A stretch of 64,000 nt of DNA. Source: Clostridia bacterium. Its GTDB lineage: Bacteria > Bacillota > Clostridia > Christensenellales > QALW01. The stretch is taken from NCBI GenBank assembly GCA_900769815.1, contig CAAGID010000030.1:80415-144414 (forward strand). The letters run 5' to 3'. The position numbers and the translations under genes were made by a program. Positions 9,027-41,242 of the stretch are shown piece by piece; the stretch's first letter is position 1, and each line of letters begins with the position of its first letter. The notes beneath the pieces are model-generated. The model was not told where the DNA came from. It saw nothing but the letters and a program-made list of their open reading frames with translations, and did no database searches.

Positions 9027-9039
9027 AATATACCTCTCT

Positions 9040-11417: not shown

Positions 11418-11447
11418 ATTATTTCTCATACCTTCTTTAAGTTTCAA

Positions 11448-12617: not shown

Positions 12618-12690
12618 TTTTTATCTCTCCCTTTTCCCTAAACTTTTCCGATTCTCCGATGCCGCTATTTTACTTGGCGTTTGCTACTCT

Positions 12691-14791: not shown

Positions 14792-14833
14792 TGCCTCACC
14801 CCTCCTAAAAGCGTACATACTTTATCTGGCATG

Positions 14834-16018
14834 CTACTGATCCGCATTAGGTGCTTCGTTGGAACACTGTTTTTTATGCTGTTTTACATAAAAATCATTG
14901 ATTCTGTTACAAATGATCTCTGCTGACTTACCTGATTCATATACATGAAACACTTTACAAATATGCTCTGCATTTTTCTGATAATCATCTTCATCCATCT
15001 GTGCAAGGATGTCATTCAGTTCCTGCTGTGTTTTCGCAACGAGAAAGCCCTTTTCCTCAAAGTCGTATGAAATTTCACGATCGTTCCGAATATACTCATC
15101 CAAATCAAACGCCGCTAGAACAACGCCCTTACCCCTACGAATAAAATCAGAGGCACAGGAGGAGTAATCAGATATCAGCAGATCTCCGATTGCAAGCAAA
15201 TCCGCCATATCCGGATAATCGGAAACATCAATACAACGCGTACCATCACAGGAAAAATCAAGTTTTTCCGTGTTGGAATGTGCTCTAACCAAGCATACCC
15301 ACTTGTTACCCTTGGATTCCAGAATTTCCAATGCCTTATTCAAATCAATCAAAACACGCTGAAACTCTTTGTTGTGATCCCGAAACGTGGGTGCATATAT
15401 CAATATTTTTGTATCTTTGCCAATACATAATTTCTCCCGTGTCATATCCTGTTCTTGTAGATCAACACATATCAGTTTATCGTTTCTGGGGGTCCCTACG
15501 CGCAATACCTCGCCCTTATAATTAAAAGCAGTTCTATATTGGGACTCCCCGTAATCGGATGCCGCAATACACAGATCCGTAATGTATTCATCCTGTATGG
15601 GTGTTGCCCACTGTTCTTTGGTCTTGATATCGTATAGCACCTTCTTAAATCCAATATCCCCATGCCAGGTTTGTATAAAAAACTGCCCCTTAGGTCTCTT
15701 TCGTATATTTGCTCTGTTATGTGTGTTTGTAACAAAGCAAAAGCAAGAAGAAAGCGCATCATAAAATTCTTTTCCGCAGCAATTAACTAACTTAATATAT
15801 TCCGGCATTATTTTCTGCATCTTTTCTTTGTCACTCACTGCCCACACGATTTGATACTCCGGATATAGCTCATGTAATTTAATGGAAATTGCCTTGGGAT
15901 TATCCGAATACTGTGCACCGTTAAAGTTCATAAATAACACTTCATTTTTAGGGCTTTGCATCATCCATCTAAGCTTCATATATCCCTTTCGAAGGGTCAT
16001 AGATATTTTTTTATTCAT
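14834..16018 (-). CDS. CDP-alditol (CDP-glycerol/ribitol) polyol-phosphotransferase, TagB/TagF family
   Basis: …FNGAQYSDNPKAI…QTWHGDIGFKKV…YAPTFRD…LISDYSS… are conserved TagF-family blocks. The start codon is uncertain (poor RBS at all candidates). Confidence 0.8.
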   Translation of the reverse strand: MNKKISMTLRKGYMKLRWMMQSPKNEVLFMNFNGAQYSDNPKAISIKLHELYPEYQIVWAVSDKEKMQKIMPEYIKLVNCCGKEFYDALSSCFCFVTNTHNRANIRKRPKGQFFIQTWHGDIGFKKVLYDIKTKEQWATPIQDEYITDLCIAASDYGESQYRTAFNYKGEVLRVGTPRNDKLICVDLQEQDMTREKLCIGKDTKILIYAPTFRDHNKEFQRVLIDLNKALEILESKGNKWVCLVRAHSNTEKLDFSCDGTRCIDVSDYPDMADLLAIGDLLISDYSSCASDFIRRGKGVVLAAFDLDEYIRNDREISYDFEEKGFLVAKTQQELNDILAQMDEDDYQKNAEHICKVFHVYESGKSAEIICNRINDFYVKQHKKQCSNEAPNADQ

Positions 16019-17549: not shown

Positions 17550-18677
17550 TCAGCCCAAAGAACCCAATATTCCCTCTGCGCGTTTCTTCCAAGTGTATTT
17601 TTCAGTAAAGTCATTATAGGCGCGCTGTGCAATCTCGTCGCGCAACTGTTCGTCTCTTTGAAGCGCATCAATGGATTTAACCCAAGCATCAATATCGTCA
17701 GGATCACACATCAATCCGTTTTCACTGTGATGCATGACTTCCTTCAGCACATCCAGATCGGAACACAAGATCGGCTTTCCCCAAGACATATATTCAAACA
17801 ACTTCAAAGGTGACATCCATTTACCGATGTCGTTTTTATTGTCTGTCGCACCCGCAGTTCTGACGTTCCGCATATAGGGCGCGATCAGGCAATCCATCGC
17901 CATTCCGTATTGCTGTGCCTCGACCGGCTTTACGAAGCCGTAAAACGCTATGTTGTCGCATCCCTGCAACTGCTCCTTCCAAAAGTCAATATCCTTTTCC
18001 ATTCCTCCAACGATATGGAAAAAGGTATTAGGGCATTTGGGAGCCAACTGGGAAATAATTTCCATTCCCTTTCCCTTATACAGATGTCCGATGTAGCCCA
18101 AATTGAGCATATTCTCGTACCGAATTTCATTTTTCGCCACCACATTGGGATCAACCGGATCGGCACCGTCGTGTGCTACGTGTATAAACTGCTCGTCCAC
18201 GCCGTATTTGTCTACGTAAAAATTCTTCAACTGTTGGGAAATGACCACGAGCTTTTTTAGCTTTTTCATCCGCAACAGCATCTTAAACTGCATGACGGCT
18301 TTCTTTCCCAATCCGTCGATTGCGGAATGGGATTCCCACACCGTTGCAAATCCCGAAGCAGCCGCCATTAGACAACAGGTTACGTCACGGCTGTATACCA
18401 GATCAGCTTTTTCTTTTTTATAAACCCGCAACGTTCTCAGTGCATATCGCAACGCCCTCAATGGGAAGCGCTGGGGCCAGCGTGTATATTGAATGGAAAA
18501 GTTTTTTCTGACGTTATAATAAGAAAACAGATCCACCGTATCGTCCCTAGCAATATCCGATGAAATCAAAAGCGTATCGTGCTCAATATCAGAAAATGCC
18601 TGACACATTTTCATAATATGAATGCTGTTTGCCTCTCTGGAGGGAATTTTAGATATGGAACAATAAACGAGTTTCAT
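17550..18677 (-). CDS. Glycosyltransferase, GT4 (GT-B) family
   Basis: 375 aa. C-terminal …SPLKLFEYMSWGKPILCSDL…E… is an EX7E-like motif. Confidence 0.8.
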   Translation of the reverse strand: MKLVYCSISKIPSREANSIHIMKMCQAFSDIEHDTLLISSDIARDDTVDLFSYYNVRKNFSIQYTRWPQRFPLRALRYALRTLRVYKKEKADLVYSRDVTCCLMAAASGFATVWESHSAIDGLGKKAVMQFKMLLRMKKLKKLVVISQQLKNFYVDKYGVDEQFIHVAHDGADPVDPNVVAKNEIRYENMLNLGYIGHLYKGKGMEIISQLAPKCPNTFFHIVGGMEKDIDFWKEQLQGCDNIAFYGFVKPVEAQQYGMAMDCLIAPYMRNVRTAGATDNKNDIGKWMSPLKLFEYMSWGKPILCSDLDVLKEVMHHSENGLMCDPDDIDAWVKSIDALQRDEQLRDEIAQRAYNDFTEKYTWKKRAEGILGSLG

Positions 18678-19969
18678 TTTACTTTATCTCCTGCCATCAG
18701 GCACTTTTCGTGTTGCTCTTGTTTCTGTTGCAAAAAGACGATCATAAAGAAGACAAATGGCATCGAGAAATGATGAATAAACGGTTCCTTGGCTTCTACA
18801 ACTGCAATCGCAACAAAAAAGAACAACATGATAAACTTGATATCTCTATTTTTAATAGCAATAATGTTTTTTAACATTTCTTTATACAGACAGACATAGA
18901 ATACAACAGCCATAATAAGACCGTATCCAAAGTAAGCCTGCAGATAACCCGTATCAGACCGGCTAAGAACACCACTGCTGGAATAACCTCGATAGATAGA
19001 GGTTCCTATGATAGTTTCGGCAGAAATGGGAGCCACCTCCTGTGCCTGAAGTGATGTCACAAAGGAGGAATTATCCGCACCACCCTCCAAAAGCTCCTTT
19101 ATTTTTCTATAGATACCGAATTTCTCTATGGAAGAAAAGAATTCAGGATAAATAATAAGCAGTGCTCCACATCCCAAAAGTCCTATAACAACGATCCAAA
19201 TACCTTTAACAGAGAGCTTAGAAAATACAAGATACAATGTCACCAAAACCAAAAGCACGGCACCAAAAGCGAAGCCGGTAGAACCCGATAGTAAGGTAGC
19301 AAATAGAATAAATATATACCCAAGTGTGTATAACAGGAGACTTCTCTTTTTGATCATGAGATAGGCACCTGAAACCATTCCTATAAACAGATTGACGGAC
19401 AACAGTGCCTCTCCAGCTCCCAAGCCTGCAGCACGGTAGGGAGATAAATAGGAAAAGTTTGTATCCAAAACAAAGTGATTGTATAAAAAATACTTGACAC
19501 TATCGCTAAAGTACTGTGATATAGCAATTGCAGCTTGTAAAAGTGTCGCAAAAAAAACTGCTTTAAAAAACTGCTCACTGTTATCAAAACAGTCGTACAT
19601 AAAATAACAAATCAGCGGAACAAAAAAAACAAACAACAACGTTCTGGATAAAATAGATTCTCCATTAACAGAGGATCCAATATTATTGATAATACCTAAA
19701 AGGAACACCCAACCAAGCATTACGATAGATAATACAAATATATTAATTATTGTTCTTCCCGATAATGTGGTTTTAGAAGGAAGTTTAATTATAAAATTTC
19801 TTCTGGCAAGAAACAATACCATGCATAAAAAGAATACCAGTTTTCTAGAGGTTAGAATATCAGGAACACCGATAGGCTGAACTTCATATATAAAGAAAAA
19901 CACCAATAATGTTTGCCATAATGTTTTTCGTGAAGATGATAATCCCTTGTCTTTTAATTCGTCTTTCAT
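18674..19969 (-). CDS. wzy: O-antigen/capsule repeat-unit polymerase (Wzy-like, O-antigen ligase-like membrane protein)
   Basis: 431 aa, about 10-12 TM, with a larger loop near the C-terminal third. AT-rich, and sits between GT genes next to wzx. Confidence 0.65.
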   Translation of the reverse strand: MKDELKDKGLSSSRKTLWQTLLVFFFIYEVQPIGVPDILTSRKLVFFLCMVLFLARRNFIIKLPSKTTLSGRTIINIFVLSIVMLGWVFLLGIINNIGSSVNGESILSRTLLFVFFVPLICYFMYDCFDNSEQFFKAVFFATLLQAAIAISQYFSDSVKYFLYNHFVLDTNFSYLSPYRAAGLGAGEALLSVNLFIGMVSGAYLMIKKRSLLLYTLGYIFILFATLLSGSTGFAFGAVLLVLVTLYLVFSKLSVKGIWIVVIGLLGCGALLIIYPEFFSSIEKFGIYRKIKELLEGGADNSSFVTSLQAQEVAPISAETIIGTSIYRGYSSSGVLSRSDTGYLQAYFGYGLIMAVVFYVCLYKEMLKNIIAIKNRDIKFIMLFFFVAIAVVEAKEPFIHHFSMPFVFFMIVFLQQKQEQHEKCLMAGDKVK

Positions 19970-19978
19970 AAACTCTCC

Positions 19979-21070
19979 TTAGATACCCTTTTTCACAGTA
20001 GAGGTAATCACGTCCTGCCATGCTGTGAATATTCTTTGTTGAGAATGGGTTTTTGTAATTTGTTTTTCGTTATTCCTCAACTCCAGATTATCACCATTGT
20101 CTAAAACAATTCGCATCTTTGTAATTAAGTCATCCTCATCGCCTGTCGTAAATAAATAACCGTTGACGCCATTTTGAATTAATTCTCTTGGTCCTCCGCA
20201 AGGGCAATCAGAACAAACAGCCGGAATTCCTAAGCACATTGCCTCCATCAAAGCATTCGGCATCCCTTCGTAATATGATGTCATCACAAACAACCGTGCG
20301 CCATATATTTTATTCAAAACATCCGGATACGCACCCGCCAATATAATCTTTTTGCATGCGGTTTCCTGTATCAGTGCACTCAAATTTGCTTTTAACGGAC
20401 CTTCTCCATATATTTCTAAAGTCAATTCCGGATAATATTTACTGATTTTTGAAAATGCCCGAATGAGCAACTCATAATTTTTTTGCTTTGACAGTCTGCC
20501 TACTGCTACAACGCGATTATCCTGTTTTCTTATAGGATAATCCTCAAATTTGAGATAGACAGGGTTATGAATGACAACACCTTTTCTCTGGATCTCTTCA
20601 GAAAAATATGCTTTAGCATCGCTGGTTTGGAAAACGATCTTGGATACTGCTTTTAGTGCCACATATCGCATCAACTTCGCCAATTTACCATATTCGAGGT
20701 TGGGATCATTTCTCTCAGAATAAATCATAGGTATACTTTTCGCACAACCGGAAATTACAGCATAAAAAACAGGCTGAATCCAATAACTGATAATAACATC
20801 TGGATTGATTTGCCGAATGATACGCTTTGTAAATTGGAGTATCTTCATATGCATAGCAAGTTTTCCGGAGTTCGCAATTTTATTTCCGATAAAGCATACA
20901 TTTTCGGCTACAGGATATGCCTGTGCATCGCCTTCCACAGAGACCAGATACACTTCATTTTCACAATTTTCGGAAAGCCAATTTGCCAGATTGATTATAG
21001 ACTTCTCGGCACCGCCGTATATATTGCCAGCCTTACTTACAGAAAGGCACGCCATCAACATAATTTTCAT
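19979..21070 (-). CDS. Glycosyltransferase, GT4 family
   Basis: 363 aa: …GGAEKSIINLANWL… at the N-terminus and …SYYEGMPNALMEAMCLGIPAVCSD… (EX7E). Confidence 0.85.
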   Translation of the reverse strand: MKIMLMACLSVSKAGNIYGGAEKSIINLANWLSENCENEVYLVSVEGDAQAYPVAENVCFIGNKIANSGKLAMHMKILQFTKRIIRQINPDVIISYWIQPVFYAVISGCAKSIPMIYSERNDPNLEYGKLAKLMRYVALKAVSKIVFQTSDAKAYFSEEIQRKGVVIHNPVYLKFEDYPIRKQDNRVVAVGRLSKQKNYELLIRAFSKISKYYPELTLEIYGEGPLKANLSALIQETACKKIILAGAYPDVLNKIYGARLFVMTSYYEGMPNALMEAMCLGIPAVCSDCPCGGPRELIQNGVNGYLFTTGDEDDLITKMRIVLDNGDNLELRNNEKQITKTHSQQRIFTAWQDVITSTVKKGI

Positions 21071-22170
21071 AGTTTTTTACCCATATTACATATTTCAGAC
21101 AATTTATGAAATGAAGCAAGTGCTATCTGTTCCCATGAATATGTATTTCTTACATATTCCTTACAACGACTAATATATAAATCTTGACAATTTAAATAAT
21201 CTTTCTTTGCCTTTAACAAGGCATTTGCAATACTTTCACTATCCAATTCTGTTCCCCAGCCAAGATTCTGCTCTACCACTTCATTCATCACATTTGTTCC
21301 AGGTGTTACCAAACAAGGATTTCCGTATTTCCATGCCTCTAGTACTGTCATAGGAAATCCTTCATACCGTGAGGTCAGTAACATAATTCCGTGTCTTTCC
21401 AACAACTTTTTCTGTGCATCTCCGTAGATCGGGCCACAATTCGTTACCTTCAAAGAACGGTAATTCCTGATTCTGTTATTTATATAGTCAATACTTTTCT
21501 CTGAACCAGTACCATAGAGTTCTATCTGTATAACCGCATCCTTTTGTTCCAGGATATCCAGTGCATCAAACAAATAATCCAGTCCCTTATGGTTAATATC
21601 AAATCTACCAATAAAATAGAAAGACCAATTCTCTTGCGGTACATATTCGGCAACTATTTCATCGGTTTTTATACCATTAGGAATCACCAAATCACATAAG
21701 GTGCAATATTTCGAATCTGCCTTTTCGTTCTCATTCAGAAAAATATAACCCTTTGCTTTTTTCATAAAGGATCGCAATATCAAATGATTTGCTACCAACT
21801 TTTTGTATTTGGATTTTGTCAATGCTGCCTCACCAAAGGATCCATGTGGCTCGATAAAATACGGTATCCCCAATTTAATAAGCGTTTTATAAAATTTAAG
21901 GTATTCAAAATAATAATGACTATGAAAAATAACCACATCCGGGTCAACGCTATGAACAAAGGATTCAAAAGACCGATCTCCCAAACAATTAAAATATGGA
22001 GAACTCATTTGAGATATGTCTGCTTTAACCGACAGAACGCTTGCTTCAAAACCCTTTATTTCATTTTGTGCATTTACTAAATTTCTCAAAACGACCGGTA
22101 TTCCTCCTGAAAGATTTAAATGTGTCGCTGTAACGTGTAATAGTCTCATTGTTTTCACGGCAACAACCAT
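21067..22170 (-). CDS. Glycosyltransferase, GT4 family
   Basis: 367 aa: …SGGIPVVLRNL… and …SRYEGFPMTVLEAWKYGNPCLVT…. The start may instead be the ATG at 22149 (MRLLHV…). Confidence 0.8.
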   Translation of the reverse strand: MVVAVKTMRLLHVTATHLNLSGGIPVVLRNLVNAQNEIKGFEASVLSVKADISQMSSPYFNCLGDRSFESFVHSVDPDVVIFHSHYYFEYLKFYKTLIKLGIPYFIEPHGSFGEAALTKSKYKKLVANHLILRSFMKKAKGYIFLNENEKADSKYCTLCDLVIPNGIKTDEIVAEYVPQENWSFYFIGRFDINHKGLDYLFDALDILEQKDAVIQIELYGTGSEKSIDYINNRIRNYRSLKVTNCGPIYGDAQKKLLERHGIMLLTSRYEGFPMTVLEAWKYGNPCLVTPGTNVMNEVVEQNLGWGTELDSESIANALLKAKKDYLNCQDLYISRCKEYVRNTYSWEQIALASFHKLSEICNMGKKL

Positions 22171-22255: not shown

Positions 22256-22714
22256 TCAATCAAGCCGTTTAATTAACTTCGCCGGAATTCCTCCATACAA
22301 GCATCCTGACTCTTTCAGATCCGATGTCACAACGGCTCCCGCTGCTACTATTGAATGATCTGCAATATTTACACCGGAACAGATCGTTACATTTGCACAC
22401 AGCCATACATTGTTTCCTACGTTGATAGGTCTTTCAATATGCATGTCCTCGTTTTCTGCTCTTTCCCACCACTTCGTTGTATCTAATCCTGTAGAGATAA
22501 TTGCAACTCCATGCGAAAGAACGCAAGCATCTCCGATCGTTACATTGCCAACCGCATTTATAAATACATTATCGTTGATATGTACCTTCTTGCCAAGCTT
22601 TAAGCGTTTTTTAAAATACACACGCGGTACCTCATATAAAACAGCCTGGGAAAACTGTGGAAAGATACTCTTAAATAATGTGGTTTTAATTTTTCGATAT
22701 ATTCTACCGACCAA
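22256..22714 (-). CDS. Hexapeptide-repeat (LbH) acetyltransferase
   Basis: 152 aa with repeated [LIV]-G-x-x-x-x units (…IGDACVLSHGVAII…VGNNVWLCANVTICSGVNIADHSIVAAGAVV…). Confidence 0.8.
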   Translation of the reverse strand: MVGRIYRKIKTTLFKSIFPQFSQAVLYEVPRVYFKKRLKLGKKVHINDNVFINAVGNVTIGDACVLSHGVAIISTGLDTTKWWERAENEDMHIERPINVGNNVWLCANVTICSGVNIADHSIVAAGAVVTSDLKESGCLYGGIPAKLIKRLD

Positions 22715-22719: not shown

Positions 22720-23538
22720 TCACTTCCTCAAAAATTTTTTATACACCCAATATTGAATTTTGACCGGCATCAAAAACATTCCGGTTTGAGCCACTGCCAC
22801 AATCATATAGTCAGCAAAGCTTGCGTAGCCCATTTTCCAAAAACGTTTAATAGTATCAATGTAACTTTTTGTGTTTTCCCAACTTTTGCGACGTTTTGCA
22901 AGATCGTCATTAGATCGGAAATACAAAAGTGATTCCCCGATGTTTTGTGCTTTACAGCCTGAGAAAAGCATTCTTCCAAAGAGATCAACGTCTTGATTTC
23001 TTCTTAAATCTGAATATCCACCATTTTCAAGCACCTTGTTTTTCCTGTACATTACGGCAGGGTGATTAAATGCGCTGCGCTTTTTTGCAAAGTTATAAAT
23101 ATCATCGTGCTTTTCAGGAACTTCACGAACTGAAACAACTTCATCGGGGGAAGAATAAAATTCATCTACAAAAGAACCCACAATGCTTAATTCCGGATTC
23201 ATTTCAAACACCTTTAATTGCTTTTCGCAACGCTCCGATTTTGATATATCATCTGTATCCATACGCGCAACAAGCTCGTTCTTGCATTCTTTCAGACCCT
23301 CATTCAAAGCTAAGCCTAAACCTATGTTTTCTTTATTAACTACGATCGAAAACAATCCAGGATATTTGTCTGTATATTCTTTTATAACCGCATACAATTC
23401 ATCATTTAACGGACCATCTTCTACTATAACAATCTCATCAGGTAAAACTGTTTGGTTGATCATACTATCAATGGCCATCCGTAAATATTCAGGCTTTTCT
23501 TTTACATACAAAGACATAAGTACGCTGTAGTTTTCCAT
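22720..23538 (-). CDS. Glycosyltransferase, GT2 family
   Basis: …SVLMSLYVKEKPEYLRMAIDSMINQT…EIVIVEDGP…ARMDTDD… (DxD). Confidence 0.85.
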   Translation of the reverse strand: MENYSVLMSLYVKEKPEYLRMAIDSMINQTVLPDEIVIVEDGPLNDELYAVIKEYTDKYPGLFSIVVNKENIGLGLALNEGLKECKNELVARMDTDDISKSERCEKQLKVFEMNPELSIVGSFVDEFYSSPDEVVSVREVPEKHDDIYNFAKKRSAFNHPAVMYRKNKVLENGGYSDLRRNQDVDLFGRMLFSGCKAQNIGESLLYFRSNDDLAKRRKSWENTKSYIDTIKRFWKMGYASFADYMIVAVAQTGMFLMPVKIQYWVYKKFLRK

Positions 23539-23543: not shown

Positions 23544-24239
23544 TTAACTCCTCAACATTTCTTTTGCTTCTGCCTGCTTTGCATCATAAGTCTCTTGATC
23601 TACTTTACCTTCCATCAGCAACCAATCACCAAAGTCCATATCAGATACAGTACCCTCACGAACTGTGTCACTTCTTTTGAGAACCTTGCCAACTGTCTGG
23701 AAAATGATTTTCATATCACCGATAAACGTGATGCCTTTGTCTATGTATTCAAGATCGAATTCAATTTTCTGTTCCCAAGTAATATTGTTGCGCCCGTTTA
23801 CTTGTGCAAGTCCGGTCAAACCGGGACGAACATCGTGCCTTCTTCGCTGTTCTTCTGTCATAAAAACGCAATCCCGAACCAAGAAGGGTCTTGGACCGAC
23901 TATTGAAATGTGCGCTAAGGCTATATTGGCTAAAGATGGAAGCTCGTCAAGTGACGTGCTACGGAGCCACGCACCATACTTTCCGAGACGCTGATCATCT
24001 GGAAGAAGATTTCCGTCTTTATCTTTTGCGTTACTCATAGTGCGAAATTTTATCAACTTGAAAATCTTTTCTTTTCCATCTTTACCTTTCTTACCGGGTC
24101 TTGGCTGAAAGAAAAACGGATTACCTTTCATAGCAATTGCACCAACCACAGTCAAGATAAGCAGGATTGGAGACAACACAAGCAAAACTATCACAGATAA
24201 TATGAAATCTATCAATCTCTTAAAAAACTTTGCGTACAT
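23544..24239 (-). CDS. Small monotopic undecaprenyl-phosphate sugar-phosphotransferase (initiating PGT; PglC/WcfS/EpsL-like)
   Basis: MYAKFFKRLIDFILSVIVLLVLSPILL…KFRTM…DELP…VGPRP… are canonical bacterial sugar-transferase motifs; 231 aa. Confidence 0.88.
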   Translation of the reverse strand: MYAKFFKRLIDFILSVIVLLVLSPILLILTVVGAIAMKGNPFFFQPRPGKKGKDGKEKIFKLIKFRTMSNAKDKDGNLLPDDQRLGKYGAWLRSTSLDELPSLANIALAHISIVGPRPFLVRDCVFMTEEQRRRHDVRPGLTGLAQVNGRNNITWEQKIEFDLEYIDKGITFIGDMKIIFQTVGKVLKRSDTVREGTVSDMDFGDWLLMEGKVDQETYDAKQAEAKEMLRS

Positions 24240-24259
24240 TATCTATTCCTCTTTCAAAT

Positions 24260-25537
24260 TTAATTGAAACAGCTTCTAATAATCTCTATCACCTTGTCCT
24301 GTTCCTCAGAAGGCATCTTATTGTCAGACGGCAAACACAAACCGCGTTCAAAGATATCCGCACCCACATCCACACAACTGCCGGCAATATAGGCGTTGGT
24401 TCTGCAACGTCCGCTGCCATCGCGGGTTACAAATTCGTGCATACGATACATCGGCTGCATATGCATCGGTTTCCAAATTGGTCTGCCTTCGACGTTATAT
24501 TTAGCGAGAGTTTCTAAAATTTCTGTCGGACAAGTCTTACCCGGCTCTTTTATGTACAATGCCGTTGAATCATCTCTGACCTGCTTGCACATATAATCCT
24601 TGCTGATGATCATAGCAGACAGCCAATAGTTCGGTTCTGTGCCATCCATAATCGGATTCATTTGTACCGGCAAGTCCTTGAAGCCGTCACGGTAACGCTC
24701 ATAAATCGCTTTTTTCTGTGCGATGTGTTCTTCCAAGTAAGGGTACTGGCCACGTACAACACCTGCAATCACGTTGCTCATACGATAATTATAGCCGACT
24801 TCCTCGTGCTGATACCATGGAGCGTTTTCTCTTGCTTGCGTTGACCACTTGCGAGCTTTATTCGCAACCTCGATATCGTTTGTCAAAAGACAGCCACCAG
24901 CAGAGCCGGTGATGATCTTATTGCCGTTGTAGCTGATCGCAGAGTAATTACCAAAAGAACCGCACTGTCTGCCGTTAATAGTTGCGCCCATTGCTTCTGC
25001 CGCATCTTCAATCAGAAGCGCACCGTGCTTCTCACAAATTTCCTTAATCAAATCCATTCTTCCGGGGAAGCCGTACAGTTCTGCAGAAACGACTAATTTC
25101 ACATCGGGATACATTTCAAATGCTTTTTCAAGTGCTACAGGATCCATATTCCATGAATCTGATTCCGTGTCAATAAATACAGGAATACCACCCTCATAAA
25201 CAACAGGATTTAATGTGGCATCAAAGGTCATATCGGAGCAAAATACTCGTTTGCCCTCCAATGCACCGTGACTGATTGCAGGTTTACCGTAAAGTGTTTC
25301 GCCTGCGTGTTTAATTGCCAAATGAAGTGCAGCAGTACAACAAGACAGACCCACCGCATATTTCATCTCTGCCTTTTCGGCGGCTATACGCTCAACCTCG
25401 TTGATATTCTCGCCAACCGTACTCATCCAGTTTGTATCATAAGCCTGCTGAACATATTTCATTTCCTCGCCGTGCATTGTCGGTGTAGCAAGCCAGACCT
25501 TTTTCTCAAACGGTGCAAACTGTTTTGAATCTTTCAT
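24260..25537 (-). CDS. DegT/DnrJ/EryC1/StrS-family PLP aminotransferase (nucleotide-4-keto-6-deoxy-sugar aminotransferase; PglE/WcfR/EpsN-like)
   Basis: …TPTMHGEEMKYVQQAYDTNWMSTVGENI…LIEDAAEAMG…SYNGNKIITGSAGG… (PLP lysine region). First gene after the locus promoter. Confidence 0.85.
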   Translation of the reverse strand: MKDSKQFAPFEKKVWLATPTMHGEEMKYVQQAYDTNWMSTVGENINEVERIAAEKAEMKYAVGLSCCTAALHLAIKHAGETLYGKPAISHGALEGKRVFCSDMTFDATLNPVVYEGGIPVFIDTESDSWNMDPVALEKAFEMYPDVKLVVSAELYGFPGRMDLIKEICEKHGALLIEDAAEAMGATINGRQCGSFGNYSAISYNGNKIITGSAGGCLLTNDIEVANKARKWSTQARENAPWYQHEEVGYNYRMSNVIAGVVRGQYPYLEEHIAQKKAIYERYRDGFKDLPVQMNPIMDGTEPNYWLSAMIISKDYMCKQVRDDSTALYIKEPGKTCPTEILETLAKYNVEGRPIWKPMHMQPMYRMHEFVTRDGSGRCRTNAYIAGSCVDVGADIFERGLCLPSDNKMPSEEQDKVIEIIRSCFN

Positions 25538-25683
25538 TTACTAAATACCTCGAATTTGTTATTTTTTGTCTCTGTAATTTTTACACTTACTCATACTGCA
25601 AATCTTAGTTCTCTCACTGTGCTTTGTTCTTTTCTTACGAATCATACTTACGCAATAATTCAATCAAACTGCATTCGTTACAT

Positions 25684-25712
25684 ATAATAACACAGTATAT
25701 GCGTTTTGTCAA
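25684..25712 (-). promoter_or_regulatory. Sigma-A promoter of the polysaccharide locus (TTGACA-17-TATTAT)
   Basis: Minus strand reads TTGACA (25712-25707), a 17-nt spacer ending TGTGT, then TATTAT (25689-25684). This leaves a ~140-nt leader before the ATG at 25537. Confidence 0.55.
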
Positions 25713-25818
25713 TGTATTGCTAAATTTTGAACATGAAAATATATGTATAAATGACAATGATTGGTAACACTTTTTCTACCATTTTGAGGACTCAAAAGCA
25801 TTGCCTAATTTTGAAATA

Positions 25819-25853
25819 TAAAAAAATATGTCGAAAATTGCAAAATTTCCGAC
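25819..25853 (-). terminator. Rho-independent terminator ending the pur-fhs-fbp-deacetylase transcription unit
   Basis: Minus strand reads GTCGGAAAT-TTTGCA-ATTTTCGAC (9-bp stem including one G-U) followed by ATATTTTTTTAT. Confidence 0.7.
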
Positions 25854-25862
25854 GTTCTTTAA

Positions 25863-26705
25863 CTATAATTCAATTTGTACTGTTTTTCCCGGCAGAAGGC
25901 TGTAATTTTTGCCTTCAACATTAAAGAAGAGTTCCGTGTTTGTAGGGTTGTAAATTATACTTCCGTCAGCGGAAGTTTTTAACTGTTTATATGCTTCAAG
26001 GTACTCAAAAATCTCCGTATTTGTTGCATACCAAATTTCTTCACGGTTACCCATAAACTCACAGAATTCTTCAATTACGTGCCAATTATCACGCTGTTCA
26101 AACTCATAGCTATGACCCCATAAATAGAAAAGCAACGGCTCGTAGTGTACCGTGCATTCAACAAAATACTTTGCTAAGTTCATAAGGTCGGGGTTATTAT
26201 GATGGCAGGTTGCAGGCAAGCGAAGCCAATCCTGGGAAATCAAAAAATTATTGCTTGACTGAACTGTTCTTGCATATAAAATACCGCAAGCTTTTAAACA
26301 ATCAACAACTTCTTGGCTTGTTGTGCCGTAAGGATACGCCATCCCTCTTGTAATTTTGCCTGTAGTTTTCTCAATATCAATTTTATCAATAAGAATTTCG
26401 TAAGTAATTTCTTGAGGAGTCAAGGTTTCAAGACGGGGATGATAATATCCGTGAATGGCAACCTCCATACCGTTTGAAAGGTATAGATCATAGGCTTCTT
26501 TTTTAGTCATTCGTCTGTTAACAATCTGACCTTCGGGATAAACGGTACCAACAGATGAAAAACGACCGCTGTTTACATTAAAAGTGCCCTTAATGCCGTG
26601 CTTTTTCATAATGTTGACAAGACGGACATCCTGTTCTACAGCATCGTCATAGCTTAATGTAAGTGCTTTTTCCTTAAAACCGGGAAACTTTGTTTTTCTA
26701 TACAT
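25863..26705 (-). CDS. Polysaccharide deacetylase family protein (NodB-homology domain)
   Basis: …ALTLSYDDAVEQDVRLVNIMKKHGIKGTFNV… (DD motif) and …AIHGYYH… (His motif); 280 aa. Confidence 0.75.
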   Translation of the reverse strand: MYRKTKFPGFKEKALTLSYDDAVEQDVRLVNIMKKHGIKGTFNVNSGRFSSVGTVYPEGQIVNRRMTKKEAYDLYLSNGMEVAIHGYYHPRLETLTPQEITYEILIDKIDIEKTTGKITRGMAYPYGTTSQEVVDCLKACGILYARTVQSSNNFLISQDWLRLPATCHHNNPDLMNLAKYFVECTVHYEPLLFYLWGHSYEFEQRDNWHVIEEFCEFMGNREEIWYATNTEIFEYLEAYKQLKTSADGSIIYNPTNTELFFNVEGKNYSLLPGKTVQIEL

Positions 26706-26706
26706 T

Positions 26707-26901
26707 TTACCAGTCCTCCTTGTGCAGTTTACTGCTTGTTTTTATATCGTCGTAATATGCTTTATATTCTTCAATGAACTTCTGATGACCATCTGTATCC
26801 AAGGTGTAAAGTTCTTCAGGCGAAAGTTCCCAAGGATCAAAAGCATCCTCATCGTCCATCTCGGAAAGCTTAAGCATATAGCCTCTGTTTATCTTTGCCA
26901 T
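26707..26901 (-). CDS. Hypothetical small acidic protein (64 aa)
   Basis: ORF packed between fbp (stop 26904) and the deacetylase (ATG 26705) with 1-2 nt gaps: MAKINRGYMLKLSEMDDEDAFDPWELSPEELY…. No family recognised. Confidence 0.45.
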   Translation of the reverse strand: MAKINRGYMLKLSEMDDEDAFDPWELSPEELYTLDTDGHQKFIEEYKAYYDDIKTSSKLHKEDW

Positions 26902-26903
26902 AA

Positions 26904-28871
26904 CTACCTCGAATTCGTTTCTTTGATTTTACCTGTTTCGTATGCCTTTAAAAGCATAGTTAAATCCGCTATTCTTTCGGAAATTTTCTTTCCCGTATCA
27001 GTATTTTTAACAAGAATATCATTATCGGAATGTTCAAAAACAACTGTATCCGAAACTACATCCGTATTATTCTTGATGGCCTCATCAGCCCCGCAAAATG
27101 GCTCATGTGCAGATATGCGCATACCTTGTGCATTATAAATAAGTGTATATCCTGCAATGCCCGTTTTGTTTCTGTAAGCCTTACAGAAGCCACCGTCAAT
27201 AACGATTACCCTGCCACCTGCTTTCACAGGTGCTTCGCCTAAATTTTTACGAACGGGAATGTGGCCGTTTATTATGTGTGCAGTATCTTCATTAAGCCCG
27301 AATTCTTTTAAAATACATTTTATCGTATTTTCATTTTCATAACAAGTATAATATGCATTTTTAGGCTCACTCCAAGCCTCCTTATCATCAATAAGCAAGC
27401 GTTCAAAGGTTGCCATTTTCTTTCTTCCGCATAAAGGCGAATCTTTACCGCACCACAAAAACCACATAATATCTTTACCCTGTTGCTTTTGCTTGGTGCC
27501 CTCAAGAGAAAAATACCCTTGACGTGCCTTTTTATCGAAATAGTCTAGTAGCTCTCTGCCGCATTTATTTTCGCCGGCTTCAAGCTTCATAAAGGTTCCG
27601 TCATCATTTAAAGGTATACAGCCATGGAACAAAAGATTCCCGTTAAAAACAGTATACATTTCGCCTTTTTCAAACAAAAATCCTACGTGACGCTGAAGCT
27701 TTTCTGAACGCATAAAGGCATTTTTTAAATACAGCATAACCTCTGCTTCTTCGTTAGTAAGTTTATATGGCTGAACGGGGTCAATGGTGGGAAAATCTGC
27801 ATCCTTAAGCTTATAGATTTGATTATCAATAATTACAGTTCCTTGCTTTTTATCAATTTTATCAAGGAAAAGTCTGTCTTCCATTTTAAATTGAGGATTT
27901 CGTAAAACAGTCTGACCTTCAAGCTTAAACTGAATAACGCTTATTGCCTTATGCATTCGAGCAATTAAAACGTCATCATCACTGTAATAAACGTCGCCTT
28001 CTGAATTGCCTTTGGGCATATAGCCTGAAACATCAGAGTTTTTATATACTTCCTGCGCAAAAAGTGAAAGAGGTCTTAAGGAAATACCATACCCTATTTC
28101 AACAACGTCAAGATTTTTATAAGTAATTGAATTGTTTAAAACCGTTGCAATACACGTTCTTGAGCCTGATGCTGCGCCCATCCAAAGAACGTCGTGATTG
28201 CCCCATTGGATATCAAGGGAATTTTCCTTAATAAGCTCTTCTACGATTATATCCGCACGGGGACCTCTGTCAAAAATGTCGCCTACAATATGAAGATGGT
28301 CAATAACAAGACTTTTTATGGCTGAGCATACTGCAATAATAAACTTTTGTGCAGCGCCTATATCGATGATGGTTTTTACGATATTTTCATAATATCTTTC
28401 CTTGTTTTTTGCATCATAGTCGTTATTAAGAAGCTCATCGATTATATAATCAAAGCCGCTTGCCGTTTTTTTAAGGTGTTTTCTTACCTTTGACCTGGTA
28501 TACTTACTGCTTACAAAACGGCATATTTCAAGAAGTCTTACAAGTGTAATGTTGTACCAATCATCTTTATCTGAAATTTTTTCTAAAAGTTCATTAAGCT
28601 TTTCTTCGGGATAATATATGAGTGTTGCAAGCTCTTCCCTTTCCTTTAAGGTTACCGTTTTTGAAAAAAGCTGTTCAATTTTTCGCCTTATAACACCTGA
28701 AGCGTTTTTTCGGATATGCTGATAAGCTTCATACTCGCCGTGAAGATCACTCATAAAATGCTCAGTGCCCTTGGGTAAATTGAGTATTGCATTAAGGTTA
28801 ATAATTTCGTTAAGTACTCTGTTACGGTCAGGATATTGTTTCTGAAGTTCAAGAATATATTTGTTTTCCAT
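26904..28871 (-). CDS. fbp: Fructose-1,6-bisphosphatase class 3
   Basis: 655 aa: MENKYILELQKQYPDRNRVLNEIINLNAILNLPKGTEHFMSDLHGEY… is the characteristic Firmicute class-III FBPase N-terminus. Metallophosphoesterase motifs (GDIFDRG, GNHD). Confidence 0.92.
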   Translation of the reverse strand: MENKYILELQKQYPDRNRVLNEIINLNAILNLPKGTEHFMSDLHGEYEAYQHIRKNASGVIRRKIEQLFSKTVTLKEREELATLIYYPEEKLNELLEKISDKDDWYNITLVRLLEICRFVSSKYTRSKVRKHLKKTASGFDYIIDELLNNDYDAKNKERYYENIVKTIIDIGAAQKFIIAVCSAIKSLVIDHLHIVGDIFDRGPRADIIVEELIKENSLDIQWGNHDVLWMGAASGSRTCIATVLNNSITYKNLDVVEIGYGISLRPLSLFAQEVYKNSDVSGYMPKGNSEGDVYYSDDDVLIARMHKAISVIQFKLEGQTVLRNPQFKMEDRLFLDKIDKKQGTVIIDNQIYKLKDADFPTIDPVQPYKLTNEEAEVMLYLKNAFMRSEKLQRHVGFLFEKGEMYTVFNGNLLFHGCIPLNDDGTFMKLEAGENKCGRELLDYFDKKARQGYFSLEGTKQKQQGKDIMWFLWCGKDSPLCGRKKMATFERLLIDDKEAWSEPKNAYYTCYENENTIKCILKEFGLNEDTAHIINGHIPVRKNLGEAPVKAGGRVIVIDGGFCKAYRNKTGIAGYTLIYNAQGMRISAHEPFCGADEAIKNNTDVVSDTVVFEHSDNDILVKNTDTGKKISERIADLTMLLKAYETGKIKETNSR

Positions 28872-30606: not shown

Positions 30607-33600
30607 CTATTTAAAATATTTTACTGCCGAAGCAAACATTCTTATATCATAGTTTCCTTCAACATTTTTATAGAGTCCTTTACCTATACGCTCAGAGTGA
30701 CCCATTTTACCGAATACCCTACCGTCAGGAGAAGTGATGCCTTCAATAGCACACATAGAATCATTGGGGTTAAAATGAATATCGCTTGTAGCGTTACCTT
30801 CTAAATCAACGTACTGCGTCGCAATCTGACCGTTTGCCTTAAGCTGTTCAATAAGCTTGGGATCAGCAATAAATCTGCCTTCGCCGTGTGAAATAGGCAC
30901 GTTAACGATGTCGCCTACGTTCATAAGTGATAACCAAGGAGATTTATTTGATGCAATACGTGTCCTTACAATACGTGACTGATGGCGTGCGATAGTATTG
31001 AAGGTAAGTGTAGGACAGGTTTCATCAGTATCAATAATCTTGCCGTAAGGAACAAGACCTAACTTAATTAGTGCCTGGAAACCGTTACAGATACCGCACA
31101 TAAGACCGTCGCGGTTATCAAGAAGGTCACTTACGCCTTCCTTGATAGCACCGTTTCTGAAGAAGGCAGTAATAAATTTACCGCTTCCGTCAGGCTCATC
31201 TCCACCTGAGAAACCGCCGGGAATAAATATCATCTGTGCATCCTTAAGTTTTTTAGCAAAGGTATCAACGCTTCTCTGAATACCGTCAGATGAAAGGTTA
31301 TTGATTACGATGATTTCAGGCTCTGCCCCTGCATCGCGAACTGCTTTAGCTGAATCAAACTCACAGTTTGTACCGGGGAATGCAGGAATAAGAACCTTGG
31401 GCTTTGCAACCTTTATTCTTGGTGCAGGATAGCTTGTTGCCTTATATTCAAAATTCTCGATTTTATTATTGCCTTGGTCAATATTACAGCTGTATACGCT
31501 TTCAAGCTTATCTTCATATGCAGTAAGAAGCTTATTAAGGCAAATTTTTTCGTCCTTATACTCAATAACTTCTTCTGTCTGGGTTGTACCAATAAGGCGT
31601 GCATCTTCAATTTCTTCAGTTGCTTCAAATATGAATGCACCGTAATTATACTTAAATATACACTTGGGGCACATATTTTCATCATACTTAAAGCCTATTG
31701 AGTTACCAAAGCACATCTTCATAACTGCTTCGCCGATACCGCCCATACCTAAGGTATAGCAGGAAAGAATCTTGCCTTCACGCATAAGTGAAGTAATTTT
31801 ATTGAAGGTAGCAATTAAAGATTCAGTTACCGGAAGACCGTTTTCATCATATTCAGGATAGATAGCATAAACCTTATTGCCTGCTTTCTTGAATTCAGGC
31901 GAAATAACGTCCTGAACCTTGCCCGTTGTTACTGCGAAGGAAACAAGTGTAGGAGGAACGTCAAGGTCCTCAAAGGAGCCTGACATTGAGTCCTTACCGC
32001 CGATTGAACCGATGCCCAATTCCTTCTGTGCTTTAAATGCACCTAAAAGTGCGGCTAAAGGCTTGCCCCAACGCTTGCCGTCCTTGCCGGGATGCTCGAA
32101 ATATTCCTGGAAGGTAAGGTAAACGTCTTCAAAGGAAGCACCTGTTGCAATTAATTTTGAAACAGATTCAACTACTGCGGTGTATGCACCGTGATAGGGA
32201 CTCTGTTCAGTAATAAAGGGATTATAGCCCCAAGCCATAAATGAGCAATCGTCAGTATGCTTCTTTTCAACAGAAACCTTCTGTACCATTGCCTGAATTG
32301 GTGTTAACTGATTCTTACCGCCAAAGGGCATAAGCACTGTGCCTGCACCGATGGTGGAGTCAAAACGCTCTGAAAGACCGCGTTTTGAGCACATATTAAG
32401 GTCGGAGGCAATATCGAAATAATTTTCGGTAAAACTTTCCTTGATTTCCTTATTCTTTATTTCAGGCTTTGCGGGTGTAACTGTTATATGCTTTTCAGCA
32501 CCGTTTGAGTTAAGGAACTCACGGCTGATATCAACAATCTTTTTGCCGTTCCAGTTCATAACAAGACGGGGTTCTTCCTTAATAACCGCAACGGGACAAG
32601 CCTGAAGGTTTTCTTCTTTTGCAAGTGCCAAGAATTTATCAATATTTTCTTTTTCGATAACAACTGCCATACGCTCCTGAGATTCGCTTATTGCAAGCTC
32701 AGTACCGTCAAGACCGTCGTACTTCTTGGGAACTGCATTAAGGTCAATTTCAAGACCGTCGGCAAGCTCGCCGATAGCAACAGAAACACCACCTGCACCG
32801 AAGTCGTTACAGCGTTTAATCATTTGTGTTGCTTCTTTATTTCTGAAAAGACGCTGAAGCTTTCTTTCTTCAGGTGCATTACCCTTCTGAACTTCAGCAC
32901 CGCAGGTTTCAAGACTCTGTGCGGTATGTGACTTTGATGAGCCTGTTGCACCGCCGCAACCGTCACGGCCTGTACTTCCGCCTAAAAGAATTACAACATC
33001 ACCGGGGGCAGGAACTTCTCTACGAACGTTCTCCTGAGGTGCGGCTGCAATAACTGCACCGATTTCCATACGCTTTGCAGCATAGCCGGGATGATATATT
33101 TCGTCAACTATACCCGTTGCAAGACCGATCTGGTTACCATATGAAGAATAACCTGCAGCAGCGGTAGTAACAATCTTTCTCTGAGGAAGCTTTCCCTTTA
33201 TAGTTTCAGAAACGGGCTTTAAGGGGTCAGCGGCACCTGTTACACGCATTGCACCGTAAACGTATGCTCTGCCTGACAAGGGATCACGGATTGCACCGCC
33301 AATACAGGTTGCTGCACCGCCGAAAGGCTCGATTTCTGTGGGATGGTTATGTGTTTCATTTTTAAAGAGAAGTAACCAGGGCTCTTTTACACCGTCAACT
33401 TCAACTTCAATTTTAACTGTACAAGCGTTGATTTCTTCTGATTCATCAAGCTTATTAAGCAAACCGTGCTTTTTAAGATATTTAACTGCAACCGTTGCAA
33501 GGTCCATTAAGCAGATGGGCTTTGTACGGTTAAGCTCTTTACGTACTTCAATATATTCTTCATATGCCTTCTGTAAAAGTTCATCTTCAAACTTAACGTC

Positions 33601-34296
33601 ATCAATAATCGTAAGGAAGGTTGTATGACGGCAATGGTCTGACCAGTATGTATCAATCATTCTGATTTCAGTAATGGTGGGGTCACGGTCTTCTGACTTA
33701 AAGTAATCCTGACAGAACTGAATATCGTCAGCATCCATTGCAAGGCCGTATTCCTTAACGAAATTTTCAAGACCTGCCCTATCAAGTTTAATAAAACCGT
33801 CTAAAGTTTTAACCGTTGTGGGAATTTCATAGTTAACCTTTAAGGTTTCAGGCTTATCTAAAGTTGCTTCCCTTGCTTCAACGGGGTTAATAACGTACTT
33901 TTTGATTTCAGCAATTTCATTTTCGGTTAAATCTCCGTAAAGAGCATAAACCTTGGCTGTTCTGATTAAGGGTCTATCGCCCTGTGAGATAATCTGAATA
34001 CACTGTGCGGCAGAGTCAGCACGCTGGTCAAACTGACCGGGCAAATATTCAACTGCGAAAACGAAAGCACCGTCGCAAGAAATATCGTCAGTTACGATAT
34101 CAAGCTGGGGCTCTGAAAAAACCGTCTTTTTTGCATAGTTAAAAAGCTCTTCGGTAATATTTTCCGCATCATAACGGTTAATTACGCGAACGTCCTTTAA
34201 TGATTCAATGCCCAATAAGTTATTGGCTTCTGAAAGAAGTCCTTTTGCTTCATTGGCAAGTTCCTTTTTCTTTTCTACAAAAACTCTGAAAACCAT
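30607..34296 (-). CDS. purL: Phosphoribosylformylglycinamidine synthase (single-chain large PurL)
   Basis: 1229 aa with N-terminal PurS-like, central AIRS and C-terminal glutamine amidotransferase regions (…GICNGFQAL…). Confidence 0.95.
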
Positions 34297-41091: not shown

Positions 41092-41104
41092 AAAAACTCT
41101 CCTT

Positions 41105-41222
41105 AAAAAACATAAAAGAGCACAGTTATTTACAAAAATGCAAATAATTGTGCCCAGACGGTCGGCTATAAAAACTCCTTGCTCCACTGTGGTTTTTCCA
41201 CAATTATCCGTCAGTCGCAAGA
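41105..41222 (-). promoter_or_regulatory. ZTP (pfl-motif) riboswitch with intrinsic terminator expression platform
   Basis: Minus strand reads TTGCGACTGACGGATAATTGTGGAAAAACCACAGTGGAGCAAGG…ATAGCCGACCGTCTGGGCACA. This carries the conserved GACUGACGG, GUGGA…ACCAC and CCGACCGUCUGGGC elements; ACGG/CCGT can form the pseudoknot. GCACAATTATTTGCA-TTTT-TGTAAATAACTGTGC plus a T-run overlaps the 3' aptamer arm. Confidence 0.85.
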
Positions 41223-41242
41223 AACTTAAAAATCACACTAAA

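Follow-up and report, generated by a model that had tools for sequence, protein, structure and literature searches.

A PglE/PglC-type initiation pair with a variant phosphoglycosyl transferase at the head of a surface-polysaccharide locus of gut Clostridia

The window analyzed here is a stretch of 64,000 nucleotides from Clostridia bacterium (assembly GCA_900769815.1, contig CAAGID010000030.1, positions 80,415 to 144,414 of the forward strand), and the system in question is a pair of adjacent genes encoding a sugar aminotransferase and a small monotopic phosphoglycosyl transferase (PGT). The pair heads a ~20-kb Wzx/Wzy-dependent surface-polysaccharide locus of gut Clostridia. Its PGT is an uncharacterized variant of the known PglE/PglC system, here called the DM subtype, which has Asp and Met in place of two tyrosines of a substrate-specificity fingerprint and is rarely linked to a PglD-like N-acetyltransferase. 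The explanation as a whole, a PglE/PglC-type initiation module with a DM-subtype PGT at the head of this locus and a lean towards an un-acetylated 4-amine, was considered probable (about 0.72).

Identity and setting of the gene pair

Both open reading frames (ORFs) were found on the minus strand and were identified by Pfam and by solved structures as a DegT-family aminotransferase and a PGT of about 230 aa, as had been stated in an earlier note on this DNA. The closest solved relative of the aminotransferase was PglE of Campylobacter jejuni (1o61, E 2e-61; also 4ztc), aligned over residues 14-413. The lysine that binds pyridoxal phosphate (PLP) was kept (K207, within an NGNK motif), so that by fold and PLP lysine the protein is a predicted DegT/PglE-type 4-aminotransferase. 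The closest solved relative of the PGT was C. concisus PglC (8e37, E 1.4e-56; also 8g1n), an N,N'-diacetylbacillosaminyl-1-phosphate transferase. A single hydrophobic N-terminal segment (residues 3-40) carrying Ser23-Pro24, an Asp98-Glu99 dyad, and a PRP motif at 116-118 were all present in the PGT, and this combination of domain, Ser-Pro helix, dyad, and PRP predicts a small monotopic PGT of the PglC family. The likeness to C. jejuni PglE/PglC proposed in the earlier note was therefore borne out, PglE and PglC being the closest solved relatives of the two proteins.

The same note had also equated the pair with WcfR/WcfS of Bacteroides fragilis polysaccharide A (PSA), which start the polymer with 2-acetamido-4-amino-2,4,6-trideoxygalactose (AATGal), and had read it as a genetic signature of zwitterionic polysaccharides (ZPS). 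For comparison with these systems, WcfR was represented by a ~240-aa N-terminal fragment recovered from the published pBAS17 plasmid sequence with machine-reading errors, its reading frames having been joined. WbgX and WbgY were taken from the Shigella sonnei plasmid, with WbgY, a transferase of 4-amino-N-acetylfucosamine (FucNAc4N), as a surrogate for WcfS. The window's aminotransferase scored 223 bits against PglE (33% identity), 92 bits against WbgX (22%), and 52 bits against the WcfR fragment (29% over 148 aa), while the WcfR fragment and WbgX scored 170 bits against each other (41%). The higher score to PglE indicates that the aminotransferase does not belong to the AATGal-synthase lineage. 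Similarly, the PGT was 49% identical to PglC and about 30-34% identical to WbgY. Thus, of the alignments proposed in the note, those to PglE and PglC agreed with it and that to WcfR, made with the fragment, did not. The genomic screen for ZPS was built on WcfR orthology (PMC10167101), and the window's aminotransferase was not a WcfR ortholog of the kind that defines AATGal-type ZPS operons. In the strict sense, the locus does not carry the signature of that screen, and an equivalence with WcfR/WcfS was not upheld.

A scan of species-representative genomes gave a set of 80 sibling loci, which were examined with ~20-kb flanks and whose neighboring ORFs were clustered. Their aminotransferases were 70-93% identical to that of the window; the bins they came from were labeled with a wide range of Clostridia families, and some were unrelated. 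The PGT adjoined the aminotransferase in ~64 of 75 related loci, indicating that the pairing is not due to chance. All of the best 120 database matches of the window's PGT were at least 88% identical to it. Aminotransferases 78-93% identical were found in bins labeled Oscillospiraceae, Lachnospiraceae, Erysipelotrichaceae, Bacilli, Sphaerochaetaceae, Coriobacteriaceae, and Prevotella, and a copy 76% identical was encoded on an IS-flanked (insertion sequence) mobilizable plasmid of Enterococcus faecalis (L081:7699-8976). The module appears to move horizontally, and some of the bins may be contaminated.

In the window, the genes following the aminotransferase were tightly spaced: 20 nt between aminotransferase and PGT, 5 nt between the PGT and a family 2 glycosyltransferase (GT2), and 5 nt between the GT2 stop and the TTG start of a left-handed beta-helix (LbH) acetyltransferase. 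A terminator-like hairpin after the upstream polysaccharide deacetylase gene and a promoter-like site before the aminotransferase indicate that the pair heads the transcription unit. The deacetylase was considered as a member of the module and rejected, because none of the 80 sibling loci contained a counterpart and because the hairpin followed it. Inverted repeats that could form an invertible promoter like that of PSA were looked for in 25300-27100 and none were found, and no Rfam element was found in the leader.

PGT subtypes and linked pathway genes

PGTs specific for UDP-diNAcBac, the UDP-linked form of N,N'-diacetylbacillosamine, are marked by an aromatic box (Y118, Y122, W150, F154, and F197 of PglC) and a GxLLP motif (PMC10186338). 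The cluster of such PGTs (Anderson et al. 2023) is also delimited by a score of at least 200 on its authors' profile HMM. When the sibling PGTs were aligned with PglC at these published positions, two subtypes were seen among 64 related loci, 41 with a PGT called YYWF and 23 with one called DM. The aromatic box was retained in the YYWF subtype. In all 24 DM members Tyr118 was replaced by Asp and Tyr122 by Met, nearly all had Arg and Asp in place of the Glu117-Lys196 pair of PglC, and a 28-aa C-terminal tail was conserved. The window's PGT was of the DM subtype, with Asp123, Met127, and Ile159 at the positions of Y118, Y122, and F154, and with Trp155 and Phe203 kept, so that two of the five box residues remained (Asp, Met, Trp, Ile, Phe). 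Arg122 and Asp202 took the place of E117 and K196, the tail spanned residues 204-231, and the GxLLP motif was present as GNLLP at 76-80.

The division into subtypes was sharp for the PGTs but not for the aminotransferases. For 63 of 63 PGTs the nearest neighbor was of the same subtype, and several alignment columns separated the subtypes perfectly. Mean aminotransferase identity was 77% within DM loci, 75% within YYWF loci, and 76% between them, only 39 of 63 nearest neighbors shared the subtype, and no single column exceeded a balanced accuracy of 0.77. The lack of a split in the aminotransferases indicates that both kinds of locus make one and the same amino sugar.

The genes around the PGT also differed. 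DM-type PGTs were followed by a GT2 in most sibling loci, while two clusters of family 4 glycosyltransferases (GT4; c6 and c8) were confined to YYWF loci. A PglD-like acetyltransferase gene was linked to 1 of 23 DM loci versus 20 of 41 YYWF loci by six-frame profile search, and to 1 of 21 versus 13 of 31 by ORF calls (Fisher p = 0.0036, uncorrected for kinship). The dehydratase that precedes the aminotransferase in the pathway was equally frequent in both (7 of 18 DM loci, 15 of 34 YYWF loci). Because the DM subtype is so rarely linked to a PglD-like gene, the present analysis leans towards a 4-amino group that is not acetylated before transfer.

Three further observations were made on the genes beside DM-type PGTs. 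In one locus (L033:1712-3331) a DM-type PGT was fused to a GT2 domain, which is Rosetta-stone support for a coupling of PGT and GT2 in the window. A 276-289-aa protein without Pfam or NCBIfam match was encoded directly after the PGT in 6 of 21 DM loci and in 0 of 31 YYWF loci (L023, L027, L029, L031 at 11968-12798, L044, and L046; also L086:943-1779 and L094:5026-5895), the slot that a PglD-like gene occupies after YYWF-type PGTs; it was absent from the window. A 596-aa protein, also without Pfam or NCBIfam match, was encoded before a NeuD-like gene and the aminotransferase in several DM-type loci (L093:5318-7108, L094:644-2434, and L095:5323-7113).

The sibling loci also show which pathway the aminotransferase serves. 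Directly upstream of it, ~35 of the 80 loci, and also L085, encoded a ~650-aa membrane-anchored dehydratase of the CapD/PglF type, the C-terminal half of which was PseB/FnlA-like. The aminotransferases that follow such a dehydratase were 70-94% identical to that of the window. The position of this dehydratase beside orthologous aminotransferases indicates that the substrate of the aminotransferase clade is the PglF product. A ~205-aa acetyltransferase of the NeuD/PglB/VioB family (TIGR03570, 231 bits, over cut-off) was encoded directly after the PGT in ~20-26 loci, and the full set of dehydratase, aminotransferase, PGT, and acetyltransferase was present in sibling loci such as the E. faecalis plasmid locus L081. 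Profiles of the CapD/PglF-type dehydratase and the NeuD/PglD-type acetyltransferase were built from the sibling loci and run over the whole window in all six frames. Matches were limited to an epimerase-like short-chain dehydrogenase/reductase (SDR), at 49.8 bits on the dehydratase profile, and to the LbH part of a 152-aa protein, at 46 bits. No PglD-type N-acetyltransferase was found in the six frames, which extends to the whole window the earlier note's observation that a PglD/EpsM-type enzyme was missing. Its description of the sole LbH enzyme as a 152-aa O-acetyltransferase-like protein also agreed with the NCBIfam and PDB matches. As a candidate N-acetyltransferase this protein was rejected: its cluster (c3) occurred together with the PglD-like cluster (c4) in 13 sibling loci, indicating that it does not substitute for PglD.

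Several observations weigh against the explanation given here. The 4,6-dehydratase of the PglF type that the pathway requires was not found in the six frames of the window either, a point that the earlier note had overlooked, and without it the pathway as seen in the window is incomplete. The epimerase-like SDR was rejected as the missing enzyme, as its solved relatives include UDP-GlcA (UDP-glucuronate) and UDP-GalNAc (UDP-N-acetylgalactosamine) 4-epimerases. If the genome encodes the dehydratase or an N-acetyltransferase at all, it does so away from the pair. Linkage itself is a limited guide, as 21 of the 41 box-intact loci also had no linked PglD-like gene, so that absence from a locus is weak evidence; kinship among the loci, moreover, means that the Fisher test overstates independence. 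In overall sequence similarity, the DM subtype was as near to PglC as the YYWF subtype was (49.7% versus 50.7%) and far from WbgY (33%). On a profile made from box-intact PGTs the window's PGT scored 289 bits, PglC 309, and WbgY 126, so the window's PGT sits inside a PglC-like super-cluster and may use UDP-diNAcBac. In addition, the stereochemistry at C4 does not follow from 33% identity to PglE. Lastly, on metagenome contigs with PGTs 88-93% identical to that of the window, two of six distinct contexts had a divergent 187-aa NeuD-like gene immediately upstream of the aminotransferase (L088-L090, with the gene at L088:8137-8700, and L093/L094, at L093:7137-7700), and a similar gene was found in L075. 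It scored 117-123 bits on the sibling-built profile and 75.5 bits, under cut-off, on TIGR03570. Its presence beside DM-type PGTs indicates that the subtype is not intrinsically acetyltransferase-free, and a rule that DM means no acetyltransferase was abandoned on account of these loci.

In L095, the locus nearest to that of the window (83-94% identity for individual genes), a frameshifted remnant of the NeuD-like gene was found upstream of the aminotransferase (L095:7150-7700), and the corresponding region of the window, compared with L095, had no trace of it. This indicates that the lineage lost a linked N-acyltransferase, a loss that fits an un-acetylated amine and complementation from elsewhere equally well.

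Remainder of the locus and charges of its product

All large ORFs from 5.3 to 25.5 kb were on the minus strand. The features of the locus are listed below.

Table 1. Features of the polysaccharide locus and its boundaries
Feature	Position	Strand	Basis
Polysaccharide deacetylase gene, upstream of pair	25863-26705		
Terminator-like hairpin 3' of deacetylase gene	25853-25830	-	consensus match only
Promoter-like site TTGACA-17-TGnTATTAT, extended -10	25712-25684	-	consensus match only; ~147 nt before aminotransferase start
PglE-type sugar 4-aminotransferase, 425 aa, first gene of locus	24260-25537	-	PF01041 DegT_DnrJ_EryC1, E 3e-70
Small monotopic PGT, 231 aa, DM subtype	23544-24239	-	PF02397 Bac_transf, E 1.6e-50
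GT2, 272 aa, probable second-sugar transferase	22720-23538	-	PF00535, E 2.6e-23
LbH acetyltransferase, 152 aa, O-acetyltransferase-like	22256-22714	-	NCBIfam maltose O-acetyltransferase and WcaF; PDB maltose/galactoside O-acetyltransferases
Three GT4	21067-22170, 19979-21070, 17550-18677	-	Pfam Glycos_transf_1 / Glyco_transf_4
Polytopic membrane protein, 431 aa, candidate Wzy polymerase	18674-19969	-	~10 hydrophobic segments
Wzx-type flippase, 480 aa	16084-17526	-	PF01943 Polysacc_synt, E 5.9e-20
TarF-like CDP-alcohol phosphotransferase (Glyphos_transf)	14834-16018	-	PF04464, E 8.4e-65; NCBIfam TarF 133 bits, under cut-off
TupA-like ATP-grasp ligase	13823-14818	-	PF14305, E 7.8e-69
SDR-cytidylyltransferase fusion, probable CDP-polyol synthase	12691-14007	-	adh_short E 1.3e-23, CTP_transf_like E 1.6e-16; 387 aa in public gene call
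"Sugar-transfer associated" ATP-grasp ligase (ATPgrasp_ST)	11448-12617	-	PF14397, E 7.5e-48
SDR epimerase, UDP-glucuronate 4-epimerase-like	10326-11447	-	PDB 5u4q 369 bits, then B. cereus epimerase 6zl6 family, WbgU, MoeE5
UDP-glucose 6-dehydrogenase (Ugd)	9040-10230	-	NF011631 628 bits; TIGR03026 335 bits, over cut-off
Galactokinase-like GHMP kinase	7854-9101	-	197.8 bits, under 226.65 cut-off
Sugar-1-P nucleotidyltransferase	7120-7857	-	
NTP_transf_5 protein	5931-7094	-	
RbsD/FucU mutarotase	5319-5750	-	
tRNA-Val and tRNA-Asp, distal boundary of locus	5093-5252	-	

The 431-aa membrane protein had no Pfam or NCBIfam match, and its hydrophobic segments make it a candidate for Wzy. By strand and spacing, the distal genes at 5319-9101 would also belong to the locus; they resemble a salvage and activation route for some sugar. 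The genes on the other side of the locus encode a class 3 fructose-bisphosphatase (FBPase), formate-tetrahydrofolate ligase (FTHFS), and PurL. FTHFS was 95-96% identical to proteins from metagenome-assembled genomes of uncultured Clostridiales/Oscillospiraceae; the DNA is from an ENA metagenome assembly, and its host is an uncultured, Oscillospirales-like gut bacterium of the Clostridia. The PurL-like gene (30607-34296) was the only confirmed purine gene of the window, and a ZMP/ZTP riboswitch (41145-41228, minus strand; 66.4 bits, above the gathering score) overlapped the 5' end of a mechanically called ORF at 40603-41220 on the same strand (TTG start at 41220).

The Ugd and 4-epimerase genes that the earlier note had placed in the locus were confirmed, Ugd by TIGR03026 and the SDR as UDP-GlcA-4-epimerase-like by its solved relatives. 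Negative charges could possibly come from uronates made by these two enzymes, or from a polyol phosphate made by the SDR-cytidylyltransferase and the TarF-like enzyme. In this part of the locus an SDR fused to a TagD-like cytidylyltransferase is encoded near the TarF-like gene (12691-16018, minus strand), with the TupA-like ATP-grasp gene between them. Among the sibling loci, stand-alone cytidylyltransferases (5 of 21 DM loci versus 1 of 31 YYWF loci) and LicD (7 of 21 versus 2 of 31) were somewhat enriched in the DM subtype, which hints at teichoic-acid-like phosphodiesters. Seven DM loci without the LbH, PglD-like, and c16 clusters (c3, c4, and c16) were chosen (L002, L009, L011, L032, L041, L047, and L052), and 3 of their 72 downstream proteins, pooled and not assigned to single loci, matched the polysaccharide pyruvyl transferase family (PS_pyruv_trans). 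A pyruvate ketal, which PSA also carries, would be a further anionic partner.

The two ATP-grasp ligases were overlooked in the earlier note, as was the pair of TarF-like enzyme and CDP-alcohol synthase, which could supply phosphate charges instead of uronates. Solved relatives were searched for with both ligases and none were found; the ATPgrasp_ST ligase had no homolog among the 80 sibling loci. The only characterized TupA-like ATP-grasp enzyme, the C-terminal domain of Cj1438, amidates the glucuronate carboxylate at C6 (PMC11800379), and by analogy the TupA-like ligase of the window could amidate uronates and remove their negative charge. ATP-grasp acylation of a 4-amino sugar is also on record: Pyl of B. 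cereus transfers 2-oxoglutarate onto a UDP-4-amino sugar, as cited in PMC11626204. The net charge pattern is not predictable from sequence.

Two predictions of the earlier note accordingly stood in part. That the 4-amine could stay free fits the rare linkage of DM-type PGTs to PglD-like genes and the decay of the NeuD-like gene in the closest relative, while an unlinked acetyltransferase is possible. That a positive charge would lie beside uronate carboxylates agrees with the presence of the Ugd and epimerase genes, and amidation by the TupA-like ligase could abolish the carboxylate side of it.

Mechanism, alternatives and known systems

In the proposed mechanism, a UDP-GlcNAc (UDP-N-acetylglucosamine) 4,6-dehydratase encoded outside the window would supply UDP-2-acetamido-2,6-dideoxy-4-hexulose, which the aminotransferase, with PLP on K207, would convert to a UDP-2-acetamido-4-amino-2,4,6-trideoxyhexose. 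By homology and by the sibling loci, this product is most likely gluco-configured (of the N-acetylbacillosamine type) and not AATGal. The PGT would then move the sugar-1-phosphate onto undecaprenyl phosphate, the adjacent GT2 would add the second sugar, and the three GT4 enzymes, the flippase, and the Wzy-like protein would complete and polymerize the unit. The polymer would probably be decorated with uronic acid, polyol phosphate, O-acetyl groups, and amide bonds made by the two ATP-grasp ligases. A free N4 on the polymer is possible, if short of an expectation; its acetylation by an unlinked enzyme is somewhat doubtful, and its substitution with another acyl group rather unlikely. That the polymer is zwitterionic is a tentative suggestion. 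Gene identities, the two PGT subtypes, and the linkage counts are direct results of the analysis; the stereochemistry, the state of N4, and whatever is said of the polymer are predictions.

Ordinary initiation with diNAcBac is an alternative, and it too is somewhat doubtful. PglD/EpsM and the dehydratase would be encoded elsewhere in the genome, the PGT would transfer diNAcBac-1-phosphate, and no free amine would result. An unlinked dehydratase has to be assumed in any case, 21 of the 41 box-intact loci likewise have no linked PglD-like gene, the PGT retains GxLLP and the equivalents of Trp150 and Phe197 (PglC numbering) and has a PglC-like profile score, and some DM-type PGTs have a divergent NeuD-like neighbor. 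However, the subtype-specific loss of Tyr118 and Tyr122 was correlated both with a different next glycosyltransferase (GT2 instead of GT4 c6/c8) and with the rarity of PglD-like genes, and of the NeuD-like gene only a pseudogene is left in L095, the nearest relative, and nothing in the window. An AATGal-initiated ZPS of the kind of PSA or the Streptococcus pneumoniae serotype 1 capsule (Sp1), in which a free 4-amine in axial position would adjoin free uronate carboxylates, shares with the window an aminotransferase and small PGT at the head of the locus, the lack of a PglD-type gene there, and the presence of Ugd and a UDP-GlcA-epimerase-like SDR; an unlinked dehydratase has a precedent in PSA (PMC13063421). 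This is nevertheless quite unlikely, given that the aminotransferase is much nearer to PglE than to WcfR and WbgX, which are closer to each other, that the PGT is 49% identical to PglC versus 34% to WbgY, that the same aminotransferase occurs in sibling loci with PglD-like genes and diNAcBac-fingerprint PGTs, and that the TupA-like enzyme may amidate the uronate.

The presence of two ATP-grasp genes in the locus raises the question of whether one of these ligases acylates the 4-amine with a group other than acetate, as in B. cereus Pyl and Neisseria PglB2, leaving N4 neutral or anionic. The Pyl precedent, as it is cited in PMC11626204, speaks for such a route, as does a sibling locus (L056) in which the PGT is fused to a PylC-like ATP-grasp protein. 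Yet it is unlikely here, as the window's ligases belong to other families (TupA-like and ATPgrasp_ST) and the only characterized TupA-like enzyme acts on a uronate carboxylate (PMC11800379). Furthermore, TupA-like genes were not enriched with the DM subtype (4 of 21 versus 3 of 31) and also occurred in loci with PglD-like genes, and the ATPgrasp_ST gene adjoins the epimerase and Ugd genes. The absence of a dehydratase from the 64 kb and the loss or decay of the NeuD-like gene in this lineage would also be expected of a remnant module, which would make no 4-amino sugar, the locus being silent or using another initiating sugar. That is very improbable: all of the genes were intact and tightly packed behind a strong promoter-like site, identical proteins recurred in public assemblies, and many sibling loci are also without a linked dehydratase, as is PSA (PMC13063421).

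If the lean towards an un-acetylated amine is followed further, the DM-type PGT could be specific for UDP-N-acetylbacillosamine (free 4-amine, gluco). Together with a PglE-like aminotransferase that is highly conserved and horizontally mobile, it could then start a large group of surface glycans with free amines that has so far gone unrecognized in gut Clostridia, a reading that is conceivable though doubtful. Many of these glycans would be zwitterionic or resemble teichoic acids, given how often the loci contain LicD/TarF-type phosphotransferases, pyruvyl transferases, or Ugd. Few defined bacterial molecules shape T-cell responses; ZPS belong to these, and their prediction in genomes has so far relied on WcfR homology. 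Should a PglE-lineage aminotransferase with a variant PglC-like PGT yield glycans with free amines, candidate producers would include many abundant gut Clostridia, which WcfR-based ZPS screens would miss. For work on PGTs, the DM signature, Asp and Met for the two box tyrosines together with the tail, offers a concrete marker of specificity that can be put to the test. With plain diNAcBac as the sugar, the locus would be an ordinary one for a capsule.

Several known systems combine parts of what is seen in the window. The B. cereus Pat/Pyl and Neisseria PglB2 systems have a 4-amino-sugar pathway with an ATP-grasp ligase in place of the acetyltransferase, whereas the ATP-grasp genes of the window represent other families and are separated from the pair by 9-12 kb. 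In L056 a YYWF-type PGT fused to a PylC-like N-terminal domain and an ATP-grasp domain (L056:11293-12553) ends at the contig end, and this architecture presumably resembles that of Neisseria PglB2. Cj1438 of the C. jejuni HS:2 capsule locus has the PF14305 family in common with the TupA-like ligase of the window, and both loci make glucuronate; Cj1438 differs in that the family is there a domain of a glycosyltransferase, while the window's enzyme stands alone, and family scans of the window's locus showed no genes for serinol or ethanolamine phosphate.

The PSA locus of B. fragilis is alike in that it is a Wzx/Wzy locus opening with an aminotransferase and small PGT, encodes no N-acetyltransferase, has its dehydratase encoded elsewhere (PMC13063421), and includes genes for an anionic partner. 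It differs in that the window's aminotransferase is not of the WcfR lineage and is not accompanied by the inverted repeats of an invertible promoter. The WbgX-WbgY-WbgZ system of the S. sonnei/Plesiomonas shigelloides O17 FucNAc4N O-antigen follows the same three-step logic, and its polymer has a free 4-amine and a uronic acid. There, however, the dehydratase gene is adjacent, and WbgX (22%, 92 bits) and WbgY (~30-34%) are distant from the window's proteins.

The closest characterized relatives are the Pgl system (PglF-PglE-PglD-PglC of C. jejuni and C. concisus) and EpsC-EpsN-EpsM-EpsL of Bacillus subtilis, in which the aminotransferase and small PGT have their counterparts. They differ from the window in that PglF/EpsC and PglD/EpsM genes are not present in it, in that their next enzyme is a PglA/EpsD-type GT4 where the window has a GT2, and, for Pgl, in that the product is an N-glycan and not the Wzx/Wzy polymer predicted here. 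The window's PGT departs from PglC in having Asp, Met, and Ile at the positions of the box residues Tyr118, Tyr122, and Phe154, Arg and Asp in place of the E117-K196 pair, and 28 extra residues in its tail. What the two PGTs share is the Ser-Pro re-entrant helix, the Asp-Glu dyad, and the PRP and GxLLP motifs.

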